From assembly GCA_965655095.1 (NCBI GenBank), contig OZ296659.1:70928001-70992000 (forward strand): a stretch of 64,000 nucleotides of DNA, read 5' to 3'. The notes beneath the pieces are model-generated. The model worked only from the letters and a program-made list of their open reading frames with translations, ran no database searches and was not told the origin of the DNA. Source of the DNA: Haplodiscus bocki (Eukaryota). Position 1 is the stretch's first letter. Each line of letters opens with the position of its first letter. Both the position numbers and the translations under genes were made by a program. Shown here piece by piece: positions 49,680 through 64,000 of the stretch.

Positions 49680-50602
49680 AGGTGCGTTTTTTTAACCGAT
49701 GTTTGCCAATTGACCTCGCGCTAAAAACGATGTTGGCTCGCGTTGTGAAAATTTTTTTGCTAAGATTGCCAAAATGGCCTATATGGCTTAAAATAAAAAA
49801 GCAAAAAATCTGAAAAAACCAAGAAAGCCAGAAAAAAAACAAAAAAAAAGAAAAAGCCAAAAAACAGCCACAACTGCCAAAATTGCTAAAAATGCCAAAA
49901 AGCCAAAGAAGCCAAGAAAGACAAAAAAGCCAAAAAAAAGTCGAAAAAGCCAGAAAACCCAAAAAAGCCACAACTGCCAAAAATGCTAAAAATGCCAAAA
50001 AACAAAAGAACCAAAAAAGCCAAAAAGCCAAAAAAAGCCAAGAAAGACAGAAAAGCCAAAAAAAAATCAAAAAAGCCATAAAAACCAAAATTGCCAAAAA
50101 TGCCGCAAAAGTCGAAAATTCCAGTAAAACCAAGAAAGCCGAAAAAACCAAAATTGCCAAAAAAGCCAAAATTGCCGAAAATCCAAAAAAGCCAAGAAAG
50201 TCAAAAATGCCAAGATTGCCAAGATTGCAGAAATTGCCGAGATTGCCAAGATTGCCGAGACTGAAATAGTGAGATTTTTCAAAATGTTCAAAAATTGAGT
50301 CTTTTTTGGAAAAATAGATGGGCTTTTCGAAAAAAGCTTGAATTTTATTCAATGTCTTTAAAAATGGCAACTTTGCTAAAGAATGCGTATCATATGGTTT
50401 TATTTCTCAAAAATGTCTTCCGCCCTATTTATGAGGTTTTTGTCGCAAAAAAAATCAAGAAACTTTGAACGTTGGAAAAATTATAAACTATGATGAAGAA
50501 AGAGGGTTTTTTTGAGAAAAAAAAACGTTTTCATCTTTTTAAAAGCCTTCTTTACCACAATGGGAAGGCGCAAAATATGCCGGTGGTAGCCGGCCGTCTT
50601 GT
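49680..50602 (+). mobile_element. Probable non-autonomous Helitron-like element containing the minisatellite
   Basis: The 3' end has a GC hairpin GCCGG-TGGTAG-CCGGC (50579-50594) followed by CGTCTTG|T. A second degenerate copy of the same end lies at 52392-52422. The 5' boundary is not resolved. Confidence 0.45.
49760..50262. repeat. Degenerate ~9-bp minisatellite (AAAAGCCAA / AGATTGCCA)
   Basis: Dozens of GCCAAAA/GCCAAGA cores. It produces the spurious K/A-rich and F/L-rich ORFs at 49621-50370. Confidence 0.9.
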
Positions 50603-53232: not shown

Positions 53233-53403
53233 AATCTGACAGAAGAAGTTTTTCAAAATATTGAGGTTATTTTGAAACTAGCGGAGTGCTACTTTAGCCG
53301 TTTGAAGTATAGGGAACAAAACTCTCAGAAAAAAAATTCCATCTGTGATGAATATTAGACGTTGGTAACCCGGGCTGACCACCCATTGATGGAATAGAAC
53401 ATT

Positions 53404-54420
53404 AGTAGTGTATAAACGGGCATTTGACGCCAAAAGCCGCGGACGCACATAAAGCCGACCAGTATTTGACGCCACAACTATGGACTCAGGGTATTACAAG
53501 AGCAATTTGACAGCAAAGGTATGGACTCATAGACTTAGAAAATCAATTAGACACCAAAACACATGCCCTCGTAGAGGTATCCATACACAGGAAAGAAAAT
53601 TTAATTTTGTAAAAATTTTTTTGAGTAGTCTTATCAATGGGGTACACAGGTATGAAAATTTAATTTTGTAAAAAGTTTTTTGAATAGTCTTATCAATGGG
53701 TGTACACAGGAAATAAATTTTAACATACCTGTTTTTTCTCCACCGTATAAATGTAAGAAAACGTGTAAAAATAATTCCACATTTCACAAAAATTTCACAG
53801 ATTTCTTCACAGAATTCTTCACAGAATTGTCGTTTTTTGTGAAAATTTCACAGAATTATCGTTTTTTGTGAAGAAATTTACTGGCTGACGAATGATACAC
53901 ATTTTTTTCCGAGCACAGACCATAAAAATTGTACCTGCACGTCAGCGGATTATTTTTTGTCTAAAGCGAAGAACACGATTTCTGAGAAATACAAACACTA
54001 TGTCGCCATCCTTAAACATGTAGAGATTATAAAATTTTGAGGTACAAATACAAATGATACATCGTTAGAAAGCTCGTTAAAAGTTTAGTAAACGCTGAAA
54101 ATTTCAGCCTTGTATCTATTACCATCTTCGAGAAAATTGACAAAAACAGTATATGTCGACATCCTTAAACATGTAGATTACAAAATTTTAAGCTACATAT
54201 ACAAATGATATACCATTCGATAGGTCGTTAAAATATTAGTGCATGCTGAAAATTTCAACTTTGTATCTATTATAATCTTTGAGAAAATTGACAAAAACCG
54301 AAAATGTCGACATCCTTAAACATGTAGAGATTATAAGTGATATATTTTTGGATAGCTCATGAAAATATTAGTGTATGTTGAAAATTTCAGCTTTGTATCT
54401 GTTATCATTTTCGAGAAATT
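53404..54420. repeat. Polinton terminal region (putative TIR) with internal direct repeats
   Basis: AGTAGT at 53404; TTTGACGCCA x2 and ATGGACTCA x2; a ~59-bp unit x2.5 at ~53585-53720; TTCACAGA repeats at ~53790-53855; a ~152-bp unit x3 at ~54000-54420 (TGTCG(A/C)CATCCTTAAACATGTAGA). The partner TIR is outside the window, so TIR length is unknown. Confidence 0.7.
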
Positions 54421-54770
54421 AAAATTATACTTATCTATACAAGTATACAAAGTTTTATTCATACAAATATATGAATAATTAAAATATGTTAAATTATTCA
54501 TACAAGTATACTTATAATTATATCATTATTCATATTTAAATAAGTGTAATTTTACGATAATAACTATTCTTTATAAGTACTTGGTACAATTATATTTGTT
54601 TGTATACCAGAGATATACTTACAAGTATATGAGTACTTATACATATTTTAGTATTTGTATAAGATTTCATGTAAGTATACCTGGATTGTTATAAGAATAC
54701 CATTGGTGACATGCAAAATGAAAAGTATTTCTACAATCATTGCAATGAGTTTGAATAGAATCACGATTTT

Positions 54771-55136
54771 TTACATATTTCTGAAACCTATAATTTCTCC
54801 AGTATCACTATCTTCTGATAATTCATAATAATCAATGGATTCAGATTCTGTATCACTTTCATTTTCATATTGTGATAAACCATCATAGAGTTTCTTAATT
54901 TCTTGTAAGACACCTGGTTTTTTTAAATTAATCATATCAGTTATTTTAACAGTTAGATCAATCAGGTCACGTATATCATCTTCACAATAATTCAAATTAA
55001 ATTTTTCGATTCTATCATACATTTTAAATCTTAGCACTTCTGATACAAAATATAATTTATTATTGTGTTCGAAATCAAACATGTTATTTTCATCAAAACT
55101 ATCTAAATACAGCAAAACATCTTTAATATCCTTCAT
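54771..55136 (-). CDS. Polinton hypothetical protein, 121 aa, acidic C-terminus
   Basis: Clean ORF inside the element with the TAAATG start context shared by other element genes. No recognisable motif. Confidence 0.65.
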   Translation of the reverse strand: MKDIKDVLLYLDSFDENNMFDFEHNNKLYFVSEVLRFKMYDRIEKFNLNYCEDDIRDLIDLTVKITDMINLKKPGVLQEIKKLYDGLSQYENESDTESESIDYYELSEDSDTGEIIGFRNM

Positions 55137-55276
55137 TTAAATTGTTCTAATTGATTTCAAATATTCAAAGATCATAGTTATCAAATTCATATTCTTTAAC
55201 AATAATATTTTTCGTTTAATAATTTTAGTTGTTTAAAACTGAAATGGAAACTACTCTATAATCATAATCATAACTT

Positions 55277-58200
55277 TCAATTCCATGGTATACTTTTAAT
55301 ATTATTTATATAACATCGTTTATCATCAAACAATGATAGTGTAGATTTTTTTACTTCTTGAAGAATCATTTCATGATTAATTGATCTTATAATATAATTA
55401 TTACATTCTCTTTGATAATCTCCACCAAATAAACAATTATAATATTCTTCAAATTTAATATGTTTTTATTGAGATTTTGAAATGCCTTTTGTTTTGTTTT
55501 TATTTTCATCATTGTTTTTACATTTAAACGAATAAGCTTTTGATCTTAAACAAACAAATTCATCTATCCAAATGCTTTTAGGAGTCTCAATTTTAAATCT
55601 ACCAATCACTTTTTTGTTTTTATTACTGAACAATTCATGATTTTCATCTAAGTTACTGAAATCAAAAATATCTTCTAAATTTTTTAAGTCTTTGATAATG
55701 TCTTTTGTTTTCATACTCAATATCATACCATCGGTATCAACATAATGTAATTGTAAATTTTCTTGTCCAAAATATGGTTGTAGTATATCATAATATGTTT
55801 CATACATATGTAATTTACTTAATTCCAAAATACTAAAACCAACATATATAGCTTTATCCATAACGATTTCATTTTTTTTATATGTGAAACTATAATAGTT
55901 TTCATATGTTTTTTGTATACCATTAAATGTTACTTTTCATTGTTGATCAACAATTTTTTTAATATTATCCTTTTTAATTAATTCTAACTCTAAACGATTG
56001 CGAACATTTTCCAAAAATTTGCCAAAAGCAGCATTAACAAGCAATTTAAAGAAGTCTTTTTCGAAATCATTTTTAGCTTTGTTTCGTTTTTGTGTATTAA
56101 AACTAATATAACCCTCCAACCATCTACTTTGTTTGAATGATATTATTTCATGAATTTTTTCAACTATCATACCATGTCTTACATAAAACTTTAACATTCT
56201 ATAATGAATAAGATACTTCTTTTTATCAGTCCAATCACATATTAACTTTTTAGATTTTGTATAGTTTTCTGGTTTTATAGTATTCATATATTCATTATAT
56301 TTATTTGGATCTATTTTTTTATTTTCTGGACAAAACGGAAAATACTTGGTTTTTTGTTTTATATTATCAGGATATTTTAGATCGACTTCAAGAAAATAAC
56401 CAATTTCACTATCGTCTGGTGTATTTAATATCTCTTCTAACCAATTCCAATACTTATCAGGATGACCATGCCAAATCTCGATTTCATCATAAGGTAAAAA
56501 TTGACTCATTGAATGACCATATAAATTAGTAGCATCAATATATAATATACTATTATCCTCATCTGATTTTACATAACGATCACCCATTACAGAGCTTATG
56601 CCTCCTCGTATATTATTCTCTATTAACAAAATCAGATCTTTATCTTGTAATGTTTGTAATTTGATATCAGTATATTTCAAAGCACATTGATATGTATAAC
56701 CTGGTAAACTCACACAATATAACGGATTAATCTTATATTCTTTGGTAGATACTTTTACAAATTTTTCAAAAGCATCAGCTAATAAAATAACATCAGTTTT
56801 ACAATATAATCTAGTTAATTGTTCTCCATCTTTGATATTGAATAGTTTAATAATTTCTTTAGTTCGTTCAATTTCATCATCATCGGGATAATCATTTTTT
56901 AATTTACTGAAGAAGTCTTCTTTTTTTAAATTATCAACAGGTTTTTTATAATCATCAATACTATTGAAATATTCATATGGGTATGCTAGTTTTTTATTTA
57001 AATATTGCCATTGGTCAGGAAATTCTTTTTTCAGAATTTTAAAGTCATCCTCATCCAAATTTTTAACTAATTTATCCAAACTCTCTGATAGGAAACGATA
57101 ACTATCAATAAATCTAATACAACCATATTTAACTGAAATATATTCTTCGTTTGTTTTAGGTATAATTTTAAATTTTACTTTATCTTTTTTTAAATCAACC
57201 AACTTTTTAAAAAACATATGACAATCGTAATTACTGAAATTATGAAAAGCAAATGGTATAAAATTACTATCTTTCTGTTTAAGGTTTATATTACAAGTGT
57301 TATGTGCCGATCCTCTGTATTTTCCTGTTAAATGGCAATGATCACGAACCTTATCAGATAATATTTCTTTTTCACAAAATAGACAAATATTATTGTTTTT
57401 AAAATCTTCTTCATTTTCTTTTGTCATAATGATATCTTTTTTAGTGTTTTTAAAATAGAAGGTCATTTTATTTTCTAATTTTATAACTTCTTTAACAAAC
57501 CAATCAACATTATTATATCCTAGGGGAGATTCGTAATAACCACTTTCTAAAACATCTTTCAATTCAGATATTATATAATATCCATTAAGTACAGGATTCT
57601 GTTTGTATATGTTGGTTGTTTTGTTTCCTATCTTAGAATTATCTTTTTCATTATCGGCTTCGAAATCGGCGATAATCCTAAAATATAATGGATTTTTATG
57701 AAAGTGTTTTTTCCAATACAGATGTGATTCATTTGATGTTCTTATAGTACAAATATTATCATCTTCACATTTTTCTTTATGATTAGTTAAAGCATTTTCA
57801 AACGTATAAGAATTTAAACACCGTCTACATACAAAACTTTTGTGATGATCTCCTAAAAATACATGCAATTTCTTAATGAGTGCATAATGATTTTTATAGA
57901 TTAATAAATCAACAAATTTATCTGAATCATTTTTACTGATTTCGATGGGTATTAAATTATGCTTCCATTTATCCCCATCTTGATAGAAGTTCAATTCATA
58001 TATATTTACAGATAAATTATTTAATTCATTAAATTTGTGAACATCACTACATTTGAAACCATTTGTAAAATCAAAACTTTGAAAGTTTAATTCATTAAAA
58101 TATTGTATATAATTGTTTACTCTTGATGGATGCGTATTTTCACAAGGATGAAGACCAGCCAAAATTGACCAAATAAAACAAAATTTATCATTATTTTGAA

Positions 58201-58945
58201 TATTTAAGATAGCATTTGATCTCAATGGAATCTTAACATAAGAAGTACCGTCTAATTCTGTGGTTTTATAAAATGATATTTTCATTGAGTTAATTTTATC
58301 AAATATCCATCCAGAGTCTTTTGTTTCTTGTATCTGAATTTGGTGTTCTAATTGAGATCTAACGTCAATGTTATCAATATCAGATTCTGTTAAATTTTTA
58401 TTAATTTTCAAGTTTATATATAATTCAATTTCATTATCTCTCTGATCTTCTTCATTAATTTTATAAAAGCTTGCTGAAAATAATGTGTGATATTTAAATT
58501 TATATTGATTTATTAATCGAGAATAAATAACAGATAATTCTTTTACGATTCCATTAATATATCTATATTCAATACCAATATCAGGATATTTACATGTAAT
58601 AGTCAAAATAGAATTTGCATGACTAATATTATGACTGTCTAAATTAATTTTTAAACCATTTTTTAAATTTCTATCAATAAAATAATATGGATTTATCATC
58701 ATTTTAGCAAATTCTTTATCATCTAATTTAATTTTTTCTCTTGCTAATTGTTTTAATGTTTTAGGGTTATATACTTTTTGTGTTTTTTTCTTAATAGGTG
58801 TTTTTTCTTCTTTAAAAAACCATTCTGGTATAATCATTTCATTTTGTTCTAATTTTTCTAAATGTTTTTTACTTCTCAAATGTTTTTGCATAGATGCTCT
58901 GTGTACATCAACATTACAAATTTCACATGTGCGGCTGTTTTCCAT
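55277..58945 (-). pseudogene. polB: Protein-primed family B DNA polymerase (pPolB), 1222 codons, interrupted by two in-frame stops (TGA 55937-55939, TAA 55466-55468)
   Basis: ExoI ADFE, ExoII FHNFSNYD, ExoIII YCKTDV; motif A YIDATNLYG, motif B KLLVNAAFGK, motif C YVDTDG (in the downstream 131-aa piece). The frame continues through both stops to ...DDKRCYINNIKSIPWN* at 55277. Confidence 0.93.
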
Positions 58946-59014
58946 TTTGCGTCCTATTTATATAGTATTATTTTATTGAAATGAAAACACTTCAATTAAA
59001 AATATAATAAATAA
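58946..59014. promoter_or_regulatory. Putative bidirectional promoter between polB and the 104-aa/integrase genes
   Basis: 69-bp AT-rich spacer between divergent starts, with TATATAAATAG on the minus strand just upstream of the polB ATG and TAAATAAATG at the plus-strand start. Confidence 0.45.
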
Positions 59015-59329
59015 ATGGAGAGTAAAATTTGCACTCAATGTAATATTGAAAAAGATATCAACAACTTTTACAAAAAATATACAGAATGTATAGACTGTAA
59101 CCGTGCAAGAGGACTAAAACGATATTATGCGAATAAAGATAAAATATCAAATCAACAAAAACTTTATTATGAAAAAAATAGGGATAGAATTTTATTACAG
59201 AAACAAAATAATAGAAGTATTCAATTTAGAGACTTAGTTATATCTTATATTGAATTAGAAAACAGATTAAAAACATTAGAAGAAAAATTGAATGTTTACA
59301 AAAATATAAATGACTCAGAAAAACATTAA
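59015..59329 (+). CDS. Small CxxC-x15-CxxC zinc-binding, basic/coiled-coil protein (104 aa)
   Basis: CTQC...CIDC, basic helix and heptad-like tail (LENRLKTLEEKL). TAAATG start; overlaps the integrase start by 20 nt. Confidence 0.75.
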   Translation: MESKICTQCNIEKDINNFYKKYTECIDCNRARGLKRYYANKDKISNQQKLYYEKNRDRILLQKQNNRSIQFRDLVISYIELENRLKTLEEKLNVYKNINDSEKH

Positions 59330-60161
59330 AATTTTTATAAACGAAATTTATTCCAAACCACCAAAAAAGAATTATATTACAAACAAAACAGATGTTTTTT
59401 ATATTGATGATACTTGGAGTTTAGATATTCTCGATCTCAAAGATTATGGTCCTGAAAATAATAGAGGGTACAGATATGTCCTTGTCACCATAGATAATTT
59501 CTCAAAATTTGGTTGGACAATACCTCTCAAAAATAAAAATGCTCAAACAATAAAAGACTCTTTCGAAAATATTTCGACAAATTCCAAAAGAAAACCAAAT
59601 TTAATCGAATCAGACAGAGGTAAAGAATTTTATAATAATATGTTTCAAGACTTCTTGAATAAAAACAATATCAAACTCTATTCTAGAAATAGTTCATATG
59701 GTGCTGTTTATGCAGAAAGATTTAATAGAACAATCAGAGATCTACTTAAAAAGATCGTTTTCGAACAAGGTGATGCAAAATGGATTGATATTTTACCTAC
59801 GATAACAAAACAATATAATAACAGAAGACATACATCAACAAAACTATCCCCAAAAGATGCTTCTCTAAAAAAGAATGAAGGATTCGTTTACAAAAATTTA
59901 TTAGACAAACGTAAAAAAGTAAAACCAAAATATGAAATAGGTGATTTAGTTAGAACAGCAGATTTAAAGAAGACTTTTTCAAAAGGAGACACAACTAATT
60001 GGTCTTATAAAATGTATAAAATAACAGAAATAATTAATGATACAATACCGAGTTATAAAATCGATAATTTAAAAGAAAGATATAACGAATCATTACTAAA
60101 AAAGACAGAGTTAACAATGAAAGAAAACAATGCAGTCATGAAAAAATTGAATTTAAACTAG
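59310..60161 (+). CDS. int: Polinton retroviral-like DDE integrase (rve), 283 aa
   Basis: WSLDILDL (D), YVLVTIDNFSKF, IESDRGKEF (D), AERFNRTIR (E), YNNRRHT, GDLVR...FSKG..TNWS. The frame is intact. Confidence 0.95.
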   Translation: MTQKNIKIFINEIYSKPPKKNYITNKTDVFYIDDTWSLDILDLKDYGPENNRGYRYVLVTIDNFSKFGWTIPLKNKNAQTIKDSFENISTNSKRKPNLIESDRGKEFYNNMFQDFLNKNNIKLYSRNSSYGAVYAERFNRTIRDLLKKIVFEQGDAKWIDILPTITKQYNNRRHTSTKLSPKDASLKKNEGFVYKNLLDKRKKVKPKYEIGDLVRTADLKKTFSKGDTTNWSYKMYKITEIINDTIPSYKIDNLKERYNESLLKKTELTMKENNAVMKKLNLN

Positions 60162-61403
60162 GTCAAGCATACGTTGTCCATCAGAGCTTATGCTTACTAA
60201 TCTATTTGTCAAAACCAGAGCATAGCCATATACTCCTACAGGTACTATTTTATCCAATTTAAATTCAATTTTTACTGATTGACCAGATTGATAATCTTTC
60301 TGATATCGTATATCGAAAACATGTATGTTATAACCAATATTATTATCATTATTATCTGATCTAAAATCATCTTCAGATATATATGATTGAAGAATGTTAT
60401 CTTTTGTGAGAGCTCTGAAAGCTTCTTTTATCTGACCATATCCTTGAGAATAATCATCATCGTCATAATTTAATAAAATAGCACTATCAGGATATTTTTC
60501 TGTTCCAATAATGCATTGAGCTGATGTTACGGGCATTCTATAAAAAGTATCGTTGTTCAATGTCTGATCATGTTGTCTGTCGTGTTGTTGGAAAGCTACA
60601 TATATCCATATAGGGACGTTAACTCCTTCTTGGGTACCTAGTTCAAAAGTCCAAAAATTTTGAGTATTGACTTCTTTCATGAAAACAGATCTTTCGGGAT
60701 AAAAAAGGTTTGTGGATGTTTTTTGTTTAAGTTGAATCTGTAATTTATTATATTCTTCAAGACTCGGAATGTAATGAGGAACATACCATTCTATTCCATT
60801 GATAACAATTTTAGCATTGTTGGTTGCGTTATTTTTATTCAAAACAGCATTTTCAGTATTTCTTGTTAGTGTTAATCGATAAGAAAGACCAAAAGTACCT
60901 GTTTCTTGATATTCAGCAAAACCGAAAACATCTTTTAGAAAAATTCTAAGATGAAATCTACCTTTCTGAGTTTTATTATCAAGCAATTCTCGTTTTCTCT
61001 TATCTCTACTACGATCGAAACCAATGGACAAATCATCACTATCTCTACTCGAAGATAATAACTTATACATTAAAGAAACAATGTGAGCATGGTCTATATT
61101 TTCCAAATGTTTACCTGAACTAGTTGTTAATTTATAGTTACTAAAAAGAGCAATTGGTCCAAGGTTGATTAACCGTATGTCATCAGCATCTGCATATCTG
61201 TTACTAGTAGCAGCTTTTAATACATCAAAATTTATTTCAATATAACTATTTAACAAACTAATAACACTATCTTCTCTAGGTATATTGATATATATCTGAG
61301 AATTAGGAGTGTTTATTGTACTAATTTCCGATGGACTATATCGTATATAATCACATTTCAAAATTTTTCTATTGATTTCATATTTTTCACTTAGTTTAAA
61401 CAT
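60153..61403 (-). CDS. Major capsid protein, double jelly-roll type (416 aa)
   Basis: Size, beta-rich alternating pattern and segments typical of Polinton MCPs (IPLK-like IFLKDVFGFAEY, LTLTRN, IEWYVPHY, PIWIYVAFQ). It lies in the same-strand block with the ATPase. The frame is intact. Confidence 0.8.
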   Translation of the reverse strand: MFKLSEKYEINRKILKCDYIRYSPSEISTINTPNSQIYINIPREDSVISLLNSYIEINFDVLKAATSNRYADADDIRLINLGPIALFSNYKLTTSSGKHLENIDHAHIVSLMYKLLSSSRDSDDLSIGFDRSRDKRKRELLDNKTQKGRFHLRIFLKDVFGFAEYQETGTFGLSYRLTLTRNTENAVLNKNNATNNAKIVINGIEWYVPHYIPSLEEYNKLQIQLKQKTSTNLFYPERSVFMKEVNTQNFWTFELGTQEGVNVPIWIYVAFQQHDRQHDQTLNNDTFYRMPVTSAQCIIGTEKYPDSAILLNYDDDDYSQGYGQIKEAFRALTKDNILQSYISEDDFRSDNNDNNIGYNIHVFDIRYQKDYQSGQSVKIEFKLDKIVPVGVYGYALVLTNRLVSISSDGQRMLDLV

Positions 61404-61493
61404 TTAAAATGTAAAAAAAAAACATGAATACATACTATTATACTTGTACATATACCTATGTATACTTACAAAGATATGGGTAATTATGCTTGT

Positions 61494-62345
61494 TTATTTG
61501 TTTAATAGATTACATTTAATTAAAATTTGTTTGTGTTGTTTCTTAGATATACATTTGTATTCTAATAATTTATCAACTATAGCAAATATTTCATCGTTAA
61601 TTATATCAGAATTATTACCAGCATGTTTTTCTTGTAATAATAACTTCAACCTATCACAAAGTTCATTAGGATCAGAGGATAGAATTAATGTTTTTGAGAT
61701 ACCAGAAGCCATGATAGCTGGTTGATCAAGTAGTCTAATCATTGAATTGTGTCTGACACTCGGTCGTCCTGTGCTTTTGGTATCATAGTTCATTTCTTTC
61801 GCAAATTTATAAATTATTTTTCGATCTTGTTGATTAGAATGATCTACATTGAATTTATGATTTGTTATCACTTTCAAAAGATCTCCTTCTAGTCTAAAAG
61901 TTTTGTCAGTATCTCGAAAAGTTATCATATTACTAAATATAGTAACTGGTATTTTTCCATGAATTAAAAAATTATTCAATTTAGTTGAATCAGGATCTTT
62001 TCTTAGTCTAAATTGACTTTTATTATCTTTTTTAAATACTTCTACTAGAGATGAAGCTAGATATGAGGTTATCATACCTTTTTCATCCATCAATTCTAAA
62101 ATTTTTTCGTTTAAATTTTCTATTGCTTTGTTATTATTAATAGAATTTTCCGTTAAAGTTCTTGTTATTTTTTCAGAAGTATTTTTTAATTCATCAGTCA
62201 TTGGTTTAAAAAATTTATTTATATCTTCATGATAGTTTTGATCACCAAGCTTATTTTGTAATCTAACTTCTTGTACTTGATTTTGTAACAAGACTGCATC
62301 GTTTAAAATTTTTAAATCTTCTCTATTTTTAATCGGAAACAACAT
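61494..62345 (-). CDS. Conserved Polinton hypothetical protein (283 aa)
   Basis: N-terminal FKPMTDEL coiled-coil and C-terminal DPNELCDRLKLLLQEKHAGNN...EI helical motif, which I recognise from Polinton ORFs. Function unknown. Confidence 0.75.
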   Translation of the reverse strand: MLFPIKNREDLKILNDAVLLQNQVQEVRLQNKLGDQNYHEDINKFFKPMTDELKNTSEKITRTLTENSINNNKAIENLNEKILELMDEKGMITSYLASSLVEVFKKDNKSQFRLRKDPDSTKLNNFLIHGKIPVTIFSNMITFRDTDKTFRLEGDLLKVITNHKFNVDHSNQQDRKIIYKFAKEMNYDTKSTGRPSVRHNSMIRLLDQPAIMASGISKTLILSSDPNELCDRLKLLLQEKHAGNNSDIINDEIFAIVDKLLEYKCISKKQHKQILIKCNLLNK

Positions 62346-62350
62346 TTATT

Positions 62351-63109
62351 TTAATCAAAAGGGTTAGTTTCACAAATACATTCAATAAATGTGGTTTTAC
62401 TTTCGTTAAAAATACAATATTTACCTTCGTTTTTATTTTTAGTCATATCAATACAGAGATAGTTATATTTTTCATCCCAAGCTTTATGACACATTTCTTT
62501 GAATTCATCATATTTCATATCATAGGCTCCGATATCATAATACATACTTTGAACATCTCTCAATGTTTGTTTAAAGAGAATTAATCTATCACTATTATTT
62601 CTAATGCTTTGTCTTGGTAAAGCGAAATAACTCTGACTAATGTAATATACATCTATATCCTCATGTCTTCCTCTCGTGAAAAATTCATCTATTTGAGAAC
62701 TATTTTTAGCTCCCAACATATCGTCAAAAATAACAACCGATCCTTTGTATTTGTTTATTGGTTTAATTTCGTTGCTTGTTTTATAATTAGGATATTGATT
62801 GGGAGATCGAGTTATTATATGAATCGGTCTTTGGTTACCTATTTTTTCAAGTACTTTAAGCATATAATAAGTTTTACCTACGTTACTGGGGCCAATAACA
62901 ACATGACGATGGTTTTCATATGTTGAAGTATCATTGTTAACGTTTTCAATATTTGGTTGATGGTAAGAAGTATTATTTTTATTTGGAGTTAAAGTGTTAA
63001 TATTGTTATTTCTTCTACTTATATTATAACAGCTTTTACAAACAGTTCTATCTTTTTTATAATTATTTTCATCTATCGTTATGTTACATACACTACAATT
63101 CCGATTCAT
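62351..63109 (-). CDS. Genome-packaging ATPase (A32/FtsK-HerA-like) with N-terminal CxxC-x15-CxxC module
   Basis: Walker A GPSNVGKT, Walker B VVIFDD, arginine motif FTRGRH and YISQSYF...IRNN. Confidence 0.92.
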   Translation of the reverse strand: MNRNCSVCNITIDENNYKKDRTVCKSCYNISRRNNNINTLTPNKNNTSYHQPNIENVNNDTSTYENHRHVVIGPSNVGKTYYMLKVLEKIGNQRPIHIITRSPNQYPNYKTSNEIKPINKYKGSVVIFDDMLGAKNSSQIDEFFTRGRHEDIDVYYISQSYFALPRQSIRNNSDRLILFKQTLRDVQSMYYDIGAYDMKYDEFKEMCHKAWDEKYNYLCIDMTKNKNEGKYCIFNESKTTFIECICETNPFD

Positions 63110-63135
63110 TTAATAAACAGAACAATTCATATTAT

Positions 63136-63210
63136 CAGAACAGAACAGAACAGAACAGAACAGAACAGAACAGAACAGAACAGAACAGAACAGAACAGAG
63201 CAGAACAGAT
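63136..63210 (+). repeat. (CAGAA)15 microsatellite
   Basis: Pentanucleotide run with two variant units (CAGAG, CAGAT), 27 bp upstream of the ATPase ATG. Confidence 0.98.
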
Positions 63211-63305
63211 CAGTTATTATTAAACATAAACGTTTTTTTAAGTTCTAGGTTGAAATTTTAATTTATTATGACTAAAAAAGTTTAATTTTATTTTTATATT
63301 CATAT

Positions 63306-63839
63306 TTATAAAAAAGATTCATTTTTGTTTTCATCTACATATCTAGTAAAAATATTACATAAACTATCTTATTCAGTTTTATTGATTACATTATCTTGTA
63401 AAGATTTTCTGTATAATTTATCAAAGGATTTAATAGTATTTTGATCTCTTTCATATAGTTTTTTGTATTTATTGTATTTGTTTAAGATTAATTTATGTAA
63501 TACTTTATTACCTAATGATAGAGCACAAGCGATACCAGCTGATATTGGTAATACAATCAATCCTATACCTATAATTGATAGAGTTATCGAAGTCGAAGTA
63601 GCTCCGATGATTACGATACTGTCTACTGATTCTAATACTGTGTTTAATGTTTTGTAATTTTTATATTTCTTTTTAGATTTGTGGTTTTCGTCTTTGAAAT
63701 AATTTATCATTTCTTTAATATTATTAATATGGTTATTAAAACTATTTACATCATTTATTTTCTTCTCTAACCGTTTTTCTAAATCAATATTTTCTAATAA
63801 TGGTGCAGTGGGATATAGTTTATCTGTTTTTGCTTCCAT
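63306..63839 (-). CDS. Polinton small membrane protein (hydrophobic hairpin); 156 aa to TAA at 63369-63371, probably a premature stop in a 177-codon gene
   Basis: N-terminal LYPTAPLL, basic helix, long G/A/S/I-rich hydrophobic stretch and basic tail. After the TAA the frame continues DSLCNIFTRYVDENKNESFL* to 63306. Confidence 0.75.
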
Positions 63840-63853
63840 TTATATAACATAAA

Positions 63854-64000
63854 TTATGAAAATCTAGGTAAGTATAAGCCTTTGCCGGTGTGATAGAAAT
63901 TAATTACTTCGGGCAATGTGGATAATGCTGCTTTTGGACTTTTGGTTGCGGCTGCTGTGGCAATGTTTGAAGTAATTTCCAAAGCTCTTCCTGGATTTTT
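63854..64000 (-). CDS. 3' end of a further Polinton ORF truncated by the window edge (possible virion core protein)
   Basis: Open frame KNPGRALEITSNIATAAATKSPKAALSTLPEVINFYHTGKGLYLPRFS* ending at 63854, Ala-rich with a terminal GKGLYL motif. Not in the supplied ORF track. Confidence 0.7.
   Translation of the reverse strand, partial: KNPGRALEITSNIATAAATKSPKAALSTLPEVINFYHTGKGLYLPRFS

Follow-up and report, generated by a model that had tools for sequence, protein, structure and literature searches.

Putative poxvirus-type TAAAT initiators at the genes of a Polinton in the Haplodiscus bocki genome

The right-hand end of the 64,000-nucleotide stretch of Haplodiscus bocki DNA analyzed here (the window) holds the left part of a Polinton, or Maverick, of 18,310 bp, which begins at position 53404 and finishes 7.7 kb beyond the window end; the remainder occupies L031:1001-8713. 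Long terminal inverted repeats and a 6-bp target-site duplication are hallmarks of these elements. The element is a bona fide Polinton: both hallmarks are found, together with a protein-primed family B DNA polymerase (pPolB, gene polB), an rve integrase, a double-jelly-roll (DJR) major capsid protein (MCP), an A32-like ATPase and a single-jelly-roll penton (Table 1). Its GC content is 25%, versus about 35% in the rest of the window. The match between the inverted repeats continues more weakly out to ~1.26 kb, and the left repeat contains 59- and 151-bp tandem subrepeats. The genes open with what appears to be a poxvirus-type initiator, and a poxvirus-type helper is likely to supply the RNA polymerase that transcribes them.

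Table 1. Polinton features within the window (window coordinates)
Feature	Position	Strand	Remarks
Target-site duplication, left copy	53398..53403	+	AACATT, 6 bp; repeated beside the right end, outside the window
Left terminal inverted repeat	53404..54535		Begins AGTAGT; ~1.13 kb near-identical to the right end
orf121, conserved gene	54771..55139	-	TAAATG 55134-55139; TTGAA boxes at -32 and -24
polB, protein-primed family B DNA polymerase	55466..58945	-	PF03175, E 5e-14, over cut-off
Divergent polB/orf104 promoter spacer	58946..59017		polB TAAAT(A) 58956-58960 (-); orf104 TAAATG 59012-59017 (+)
orf104, CxxC zinc-finger protein	59015..59329	+	Resembles N-terminus of phage endonucleases; PHROG 2340, E 8e-8
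rve integrase	59307..60161	+	PF00665, E 8e-12, over cut-off; TAAATG 59307-59312, within the end of orf104
DJR MCP	60153..61406	-	PF21738, E 1e-10, over cut-off; TAAATG 61401-61406
orf283, conserved core gene	61494..62348	-	TAAATG 62343-62348
A32-like packaging ATPase	62351..63112	-	PF04665, E 3e-6, over cut-off; TAAATG 63107-63112
orf156, conserved gene with hydrophobic stretch	63369..63842	-	TAAATG 63837-63842
orf132, end	63843..64000	-	Element runs on 7.7 kb past the window (L031:1001-8713)

Beyond the window lie 12 further genes, including two pentons, a protease, a helix-turn-helix (HTH) protein of winged-helix type (PF13412) and accessory genes, followed by the right inverted repeat. The structure model of the penton at L031:1480-2583 matches the mavirus penton (6g41, E = 3e-8), with the Sputnik and adenovirus pentons next. 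The penton paralogues are 36-39% identical, and the second gene (L031:2656-3727) is broken in this copy into 321 residues and a 74-residue overlapping tail, compared with ~356 residues elsewhere. The protease assignment is a probable one. The best VIA matches of its model are mostly deubiquitinase/SUMO-protease-type cysteine proteases, and adenovirus protease aligns with a Z-score of 6.4 and a root-mean-square deviation of 3.6 over 105 residues; a Foldseek search gave no match under E 0.001. The H/D/Q/C pattern is presumably that of such proteases. The window copy of polB is broken by a stop after codon 1002, with a later piece at 55466-55861. A PHROG scan of the element's proteins was uninformative for all but orf104, and a match of orf58 to Pox_EPC_I2-L1 was discarded, being under cut-off and not repeated in a paralogue. 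No RNA polymerase is found among the element's 20 genes or 30 accessory representatives.

The first-pass annotation of the window had proposed that seven of eight genes begin with TAAATG, and TAA does stand directly before the ATG at 55136 (-), 59015 (+), 59310 (+), 61403 (-), 62345 (-), 63109 (-) and 63839 (-). Across the whole element 19 of 20 genes start in this way, among them all 12 beyond the window, an out-of-sample set that was not visible to that annotation; the TAAAT word itself is present in 20/20 genes, polB included. AT richness, put at about 5% per gene, had been judged insufficient, and the counts bear this out. TAA precedes 15 of the 389 ATGs between window positions 54401 and 64000, and in the element core it does so at 33 of 618, a background of 0.04-0.06 per gene. 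At a rate of 0.063, which allows for a "first ATG after a stop" bias, P is 3e-8 for seven of eight and 4e-15 for 12 of 12. A host preference for TAA before ATG was also looked for, and only 2 of 18 host starts read TAAATG (Fisher P = 1.5e-7). This control comprises 3 histones and 15 Ras-family first exons; rows that were ambiguous (L095, L110, L120, L138), lacked an ATG (L128, L129) or were duplicated (L135) were excluded.

The word is equally constant among copies chosen by protein identity, with TAAATG at 112/112 MCP, 107/107 integrase and 104/106 orf283 starts. The integrase copies have 69 distinct upstream 60-mers, some of them unrelated, and every one ends in TAA; from -15 to -4 the top-base frequency is 0.39-0.82 while the TAA is invariant. 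Shuffled genes retain TAA too, as do recently acquired accessory genes. A wider set of 541 starts in 39 families contains 513 with TAAATG, after removal of eight families without TAA as internal-Met fragments or antisense open reading frames (ORFs); the clustering behind it grouped a few accessory ORFs and ATPases with polB or orf104. A metagenome scan recovered one close relative, also with TAAATG (L163), and one false match (L164), and scans of viral contigs for relatives in other hosts found none. From these counts the motif is real, and TAAAT appears to be a strongly selected poxvirus-type initiator throughout the Polinton, which would work much as the borrowed promoters of a virophage do.

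The start of polB does read AAAATG, as the first-pass annotation had it. On that ground polB had been assigned to a separate temporal class, an argument that fails: two other polB types start with TAAATG (35/36 and 6/6), and the window allele keeps TAAAT in the arrangement TATATAAAT, 10 nt, ATG. The word is kept in 12 of 15 window-type alleles, and its spacing from the upstream box equals that in the polB types that start with TAAATG. Because TAAAT lies 10 nt upstream at the homologous place and other alleles have the fused form, polB is no true exception. In the window Polinton's family, 22 of the 541 starts have TAAAT at 0-13 nt from the ATG, whether in frame or not. Such slipping relative to the ATG fits a transcription initiator and does not fit a translation context, which lends indirect support to the view that TAAAT behaves as the former.

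Vaccinia late promoters consist of TAAAT, mostly followed by the start-codon G, and a T that is conserved ten bases ahead of it among other T residues (PMC11980589). Intermediate promoters are without that T and have an AT-rich core ~12 bp upstream (PMC11980589, PMC12917281, PMC12722222). In the Polinton, 15 of 19 genes carry the corresponding T, ten bases ahead of TAAAT (P = 6e-4). Among 337 unique starts this T has a frequency of 0.74, compared with 0.34 at 544 TAAATG sites of those loci that are not starts; 31 of the 39 families have it as the majority base. Starts preceded by an AT-rich box at ~12 nt seldom have it, as in vaccinia intermediate promoters: the figures are 0.35 for orf104 and, in a second Polinton family described below, 2/11 for Rpo18 and 0/6 for a zinc-finger gene. 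At polB, orf104 and Rpo18, AATAAA or TTTCAAAT is found 11-12 nt upstream; the vaccinia intermediate core has no consensus (PMC12917281). The MCP promoter has late-type geometry, with a T-run, a 6-nt spacer and then TAAATG, and a T-run lies within 25 nt in 111 of 112 MCP copies. TT(G/C)AA boxes stand 20-50 nt upstream of polB, orf104, orf121, orf147, orf169 and orf200, head-to-head in the polB/orf104 spacer, and are mostly absent from the capsid, penton, protease and ATPase genes. Reading the distal TTGAA as an early promoter is unsafe, because where two genes diverge, the distal box of one is the proximal box of the other on the opposite strand.

The word TTTTTNT ends vaccinia early transcripts (PMC3793997, PMC3061580), and it is purged from polB in the window Polinton's family. 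Only 3 occurrences are seen where synonymous shuffles predict 128, with genes assigned by BLAST; the control word TTTTTNV occurs 267 times versus 330 expected. Across four diverged polB types, which form two pairs without BLAST similarity between the pairs, the count is 1 versus 11.8 (P ~1e-4), and across polB clusters under 80% identity it is 1 versus 14.6. The coding strand of the window polB is free of the word for 4.6 kb from the ATG, and in many copies the first TTTTTNT falls directly after the gene. Seen and expected counts are normal for integrase (21/22), MCP (10/6), penton a (24/27), orf283 (15/16) and host ORFs (27/24). The purge suggests that polB of this family may be expressed early. 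Of the separate temporal class proposed earlier, this part survives, for one family only. Positions directly after stop codons show no clean class pattern for TTTTTNT. Depletion of AATAAA was rejected as a test of nuclear versus cytoplasmic transcription, because neither the element (46 seen, 44 expected) nor host reverse-transcriptase ORFs (122/104 and 38/38.7) are depleted.

The second Polinton family (L328-L367, e.g. L332:1489-1932) has a capsid 23% identical to the window element's MCP. Among 120 starts chosen by protein N-terminal words, TAAAT is found at 114, fused to the ATG in 83 and displaced in 31, and the upstream T is present at 8/8 capsid and 8/9 penton starts, compared with the low count at Rpo18 given above. 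The family carries Rpo18, a vaccinia-like RNA-polymerase subunit, with PF03293 over cut-off in 150 of 150 scored loci (the best 150 of 456 candidates). The captured protein has a single PDB match under E 0.001, vaccinia rpo18 (E = 5e-15); even at E up to 1, no Rpb7-type chain from cells or from other viruses is matched. Ten Rpo18 loci and nine 20-kb regions, six of which overlap those loci, are AT-rich gene arrays; the virion module is present in 8 of the 9 regions, and one region is cut short. Both families draw on the same polB clades, and they have in common the integrase (55-66% identical) and accessory genes (up to 78% identical). In vaccinia, the Rpo18 gene is an early gene (PMC11980589) and its product touches the capping enzyme in the polymerase complexes (PMC12917281). 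The termini of the second family differ (AGTAGTATACA), its core genes are all co-oriented, and it has a long, variable gene starting MPINVFG. One locus (L354; G000:C3:12680001-12690000) repeats in tandem a 5-kb unit made up of Rpo18, an HTH gene and an orf111 homologue (78% identical to the window family); words from the terminal repeats separate the units.

We consider it likely, with a probability of about 0.68, that the Polinton is a virophage-like parasite that relies on a poxvirus-type helper's RNA polymerase to transcribe its genes; if any poxvirus-like polymerase is counted, the same mechanism becomes highly probable. The initiator and helper polymerase that had been proposed for the window gain indirect support from the promoter geometry, the displaced TAAAT, the second family and its Rpo18, with the amendment that the helper would be of poxvirus type and not a generic giant virus. 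The helper's cytoplasmic polymerase would read the genes from TAAAT, mostly fused to the ATG, and transcription may start within the word and slip, giving 5' poly(A) leaders. Late expression would be expected of the capsid and packaging genes, and intermediate-like expression of those with an AT-rich box ~12 nt upstream; polB of the window family would additionally be made early, hence its loss of TTTTTNT. The element would copy itself by its pPolB, package in its own capsid and re-integrate by its own integrase; given the use of a helper polymerase, it would be a virophage-like parasite that also integrates. A bolder version is doubtful, namely that the integrase-bearing Polintons filling this genome are endogenous poxvirus virophages with a full early, intermediate and late program borrowed from a poxvirus of the host lineage yet to be discovered, that the Rpo18 of the sister family retunes or poisons the helper polymerase, and that the copies form an inducible antiviral defense like that of mavirus in a protist.

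Several observations weigh against a poxvirus-type helper. An Rpb1 search of the host genome returned only three intron-split loci, read as host Pol I-III, and no helper; searches for VLTF3, RPO7 and D13/Rif gave 0 matches, but the controls stayed silent too, which leaves the absence of these genes unproven. Initiators of the TAAA(T) type also occur outside poxviruses, in yeast virus-like elements (PMC6211774). Rpo18 is absent from the window element, and where it occurs it carries TTTTTNT itself (9 seen, 8.7 expected). The word is also depleted in penton b (3 versus 45 expected; 0 versus 3.2 after clustering). The polBs of the second family, an out-of-sample set likewise assigned by BLAST, are not purged of it (41 versus 61; control word 56 versus 97). 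Since these are 54-83% identical to the polBs of the window family, the purge is family-specific and not set by the protein. The host control is limited in size and uses inferred starts, and the 541-start set was partly filtered on the motif itself. Finally, kinship among the copies and overlap between some loci make the pooled counts look more independent than they are.

The same mechanism could draw on another polymerase donor, either an asfarvirus- or egovirus-like relative or a yeast-type cytoplasmic linear plasmid. Yeast elements have an upstream ATNTGA box and a TAAAN initiator with slippage (PMC6211774), to which the TT(G/C)AA boxes here are similar, and parabasalid polintons received KilA genes from egoviruses. 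We nevertheless regard such a donor as unlikely, because the captured subunit matches vaccinia Rpo18 to the exclusion of any other Rpb7-type chain at E up to 1, and because fused TAAATG, the T at the tenth base upstream and TTTTTNT belong to the poxvirus repertoire. Less likely again is that TAAAT serves host nuclear RNA polymerase II as an element-specific initiator or TATA-like word, perhaps with the element's HTH protein. Many copies are integrated in nuclear DNA, a winged-helix protein (PF13412) is encoded, many starts read TATATAAATG, matching a TATA box, and the two host TAAATG starts belong to Ras-family genes. However, a TATA box works 25-30 bp before the start site, so conserved N-termini would be lost, and those of the capsid are conserved in homologues down to ~30% identity; the T at -13, the strand-specific loss of TTTTTNT and Rpo18 would also be left unexplained.

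Promoters that are a relic of a helper-dependent ancestor, unused by the copies that now spread, would agree with the failure of the Rpb1 search to find helper genes in the assembly and with the broken genes that many copies carry. Yet the TAA stays invariant while the adjoining integrase bases vary, and it is kept after shuffling and in newly gained accessory genes, which makes a relic more improbable still. The least probable proposal is a translation signal, in which a stop guards the start codon or permits stop-restart on polycistronic RNA. TAA is indeed the upstream gene's stop in some copies (Rpo18 to the next gene in L328, L332 and L334-L337; also L197). In the window element, this is so in 0 of 19 cases, and the genes lie on both strands. 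Moreover, TAG and TGA practically never substitute (1 TGA among the exceptions), and TAAAT is kept when shifted out of frame.

The host genome measures 1.5 Gb; its genes are split by introns, and it contains histone genes in a tandem array. In a capsid search, all 100 scored matches were at least 91% identical; these are the best 100 of 24,224 first-look candidates, a figure that does not equal copy number. Elements of different families adjoin, a few kb apart, at L207-L209 and L340-L341. Words such as TATACTTACAA and TACAAGTATA recur in intergenic spacers (window 61410-61490 and the L031 spacers) and fill the inner terminal repeats. Contigs from four runs cover the whole stretch evenly and reveal no start or end sites, a result that speaks neither for nor against expression; their joints concentrate at 61406-61503, and this clustering suggests recombination at these spacers. 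A (CAGAA)n microsatellite (window 63126-63217) lies directly upstream of the ATPase start, where other copies have related GAACTGTTCT repeats, and a degenerate 9-bp tandem array (AAAAAAGCC) occupies 49795-50213 in host DNA left of the element.

Two polB clades, mutually without BLAST similarity, share one element slot behind near-identical promoter modules (L199:944-3844, L202:1443-4820, L196:538-3867, L209:2258-5557), and each comprises two sub-lineages (40% and 48% identical). Accessory paralogues of 120-200 residues, some with an N-terminal zinc finger (L231:4963-5517, L209:6320-6862, L265:8486-8923, L214:1885-2454), resemble by eye the N-terminal part of polB. At L210:4932-5729, an orf182-like accessory gene has a C-terminal RING finger (PF13920, E = 1e-8) and starts with TAAATA, then ATG.

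A poxvirus promoter code that can be read from sequence makes the expression of integrated Mavericks, and their possible dependence on a helper, a testable matter, and start-codon logos could sort Maverick families into host-transcribed and helper-transcribed ones. The proposal predicts a poxvirus-type virus in the host lineage. If it is true, virophage-type parasitism, so far a matter of protists and insect occlusion bodies, would extend to chromosomal elements of high copy number.

Helper-shared promoters are already known from protist virophages, as are poxvirus-associated Polinton-like viruses, the latter from a main text whose available part holds no promoter analysis. No title or abstract opening on poxvirus promoters or Rpo18 in Polintons was found in a literature search whose coverage leaves out most subscription journals. 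The virophages mavirus/EMALE and Gezel-14T/PgVV (PMC8547959; 10.1101/2022.07.28.501842) are small DNA viruses that likewise integrate and have promoters modeled on the helper's; they differ in that their helpers are mimivirus relatives in protists, the motifs are TCTA or AAAATTGA, and dependence has been shown experimentally. Entomopoxvirus-associated Polinton-like viruses (PMC11296320) share the tie to poxviruses and mosaic replication modules. They are ~12 kb, come from occlusion bodies and are without an rve integrase, and promoter, motif, transcription and TAAAT are not mentioned in the available main text, supplements being outside this scope. The elements described here are instead 18-kb, integrase-bearing, high-copy proviruses with promoter evidence and no observed helper.

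Vaccinia promoters and terminator (PMC11980589, PMC12722222, PMC12917281, PMC5294985, PMC3061580, PMC3793997) offer the closest parallels in signals. The start codon overlaps TAAAT(G/A), a T stands ten bases before it, a subset has an AT-rich stretch ~12 nt upstream that may correspond to the intermediate core, and the window family's polB appears to exclude TTTTTNT. The difference is that the Polinton is an element without its own polymerase, with putative promoters read from its sequence. The yeast virus-like elements pGKL1/2 (PMC6211774) are linear and combine a TAAAN initiator with an upstream box 20-40 nt before the ATG; they have their own RNA polymerase and capping enzyme, and the available text describes neither capsid nor integration. 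In gene content and ends, the Polinton resembles the Mavericks/Polintons named 'adintoviruses' (PMC8502044), with inverted repeats, a 6-bp duplication, two unrelated pPolB classes, rve integrase, A32 ATPase, DJR capsid, penton and probable protease. The terms "promoter" and "helper" do not occur in the available part of that account, and what distinguishes the window Polinton from these relatives is its putative poxvirus-type initiators, two penton paralogues and a sister family with Rpo18.

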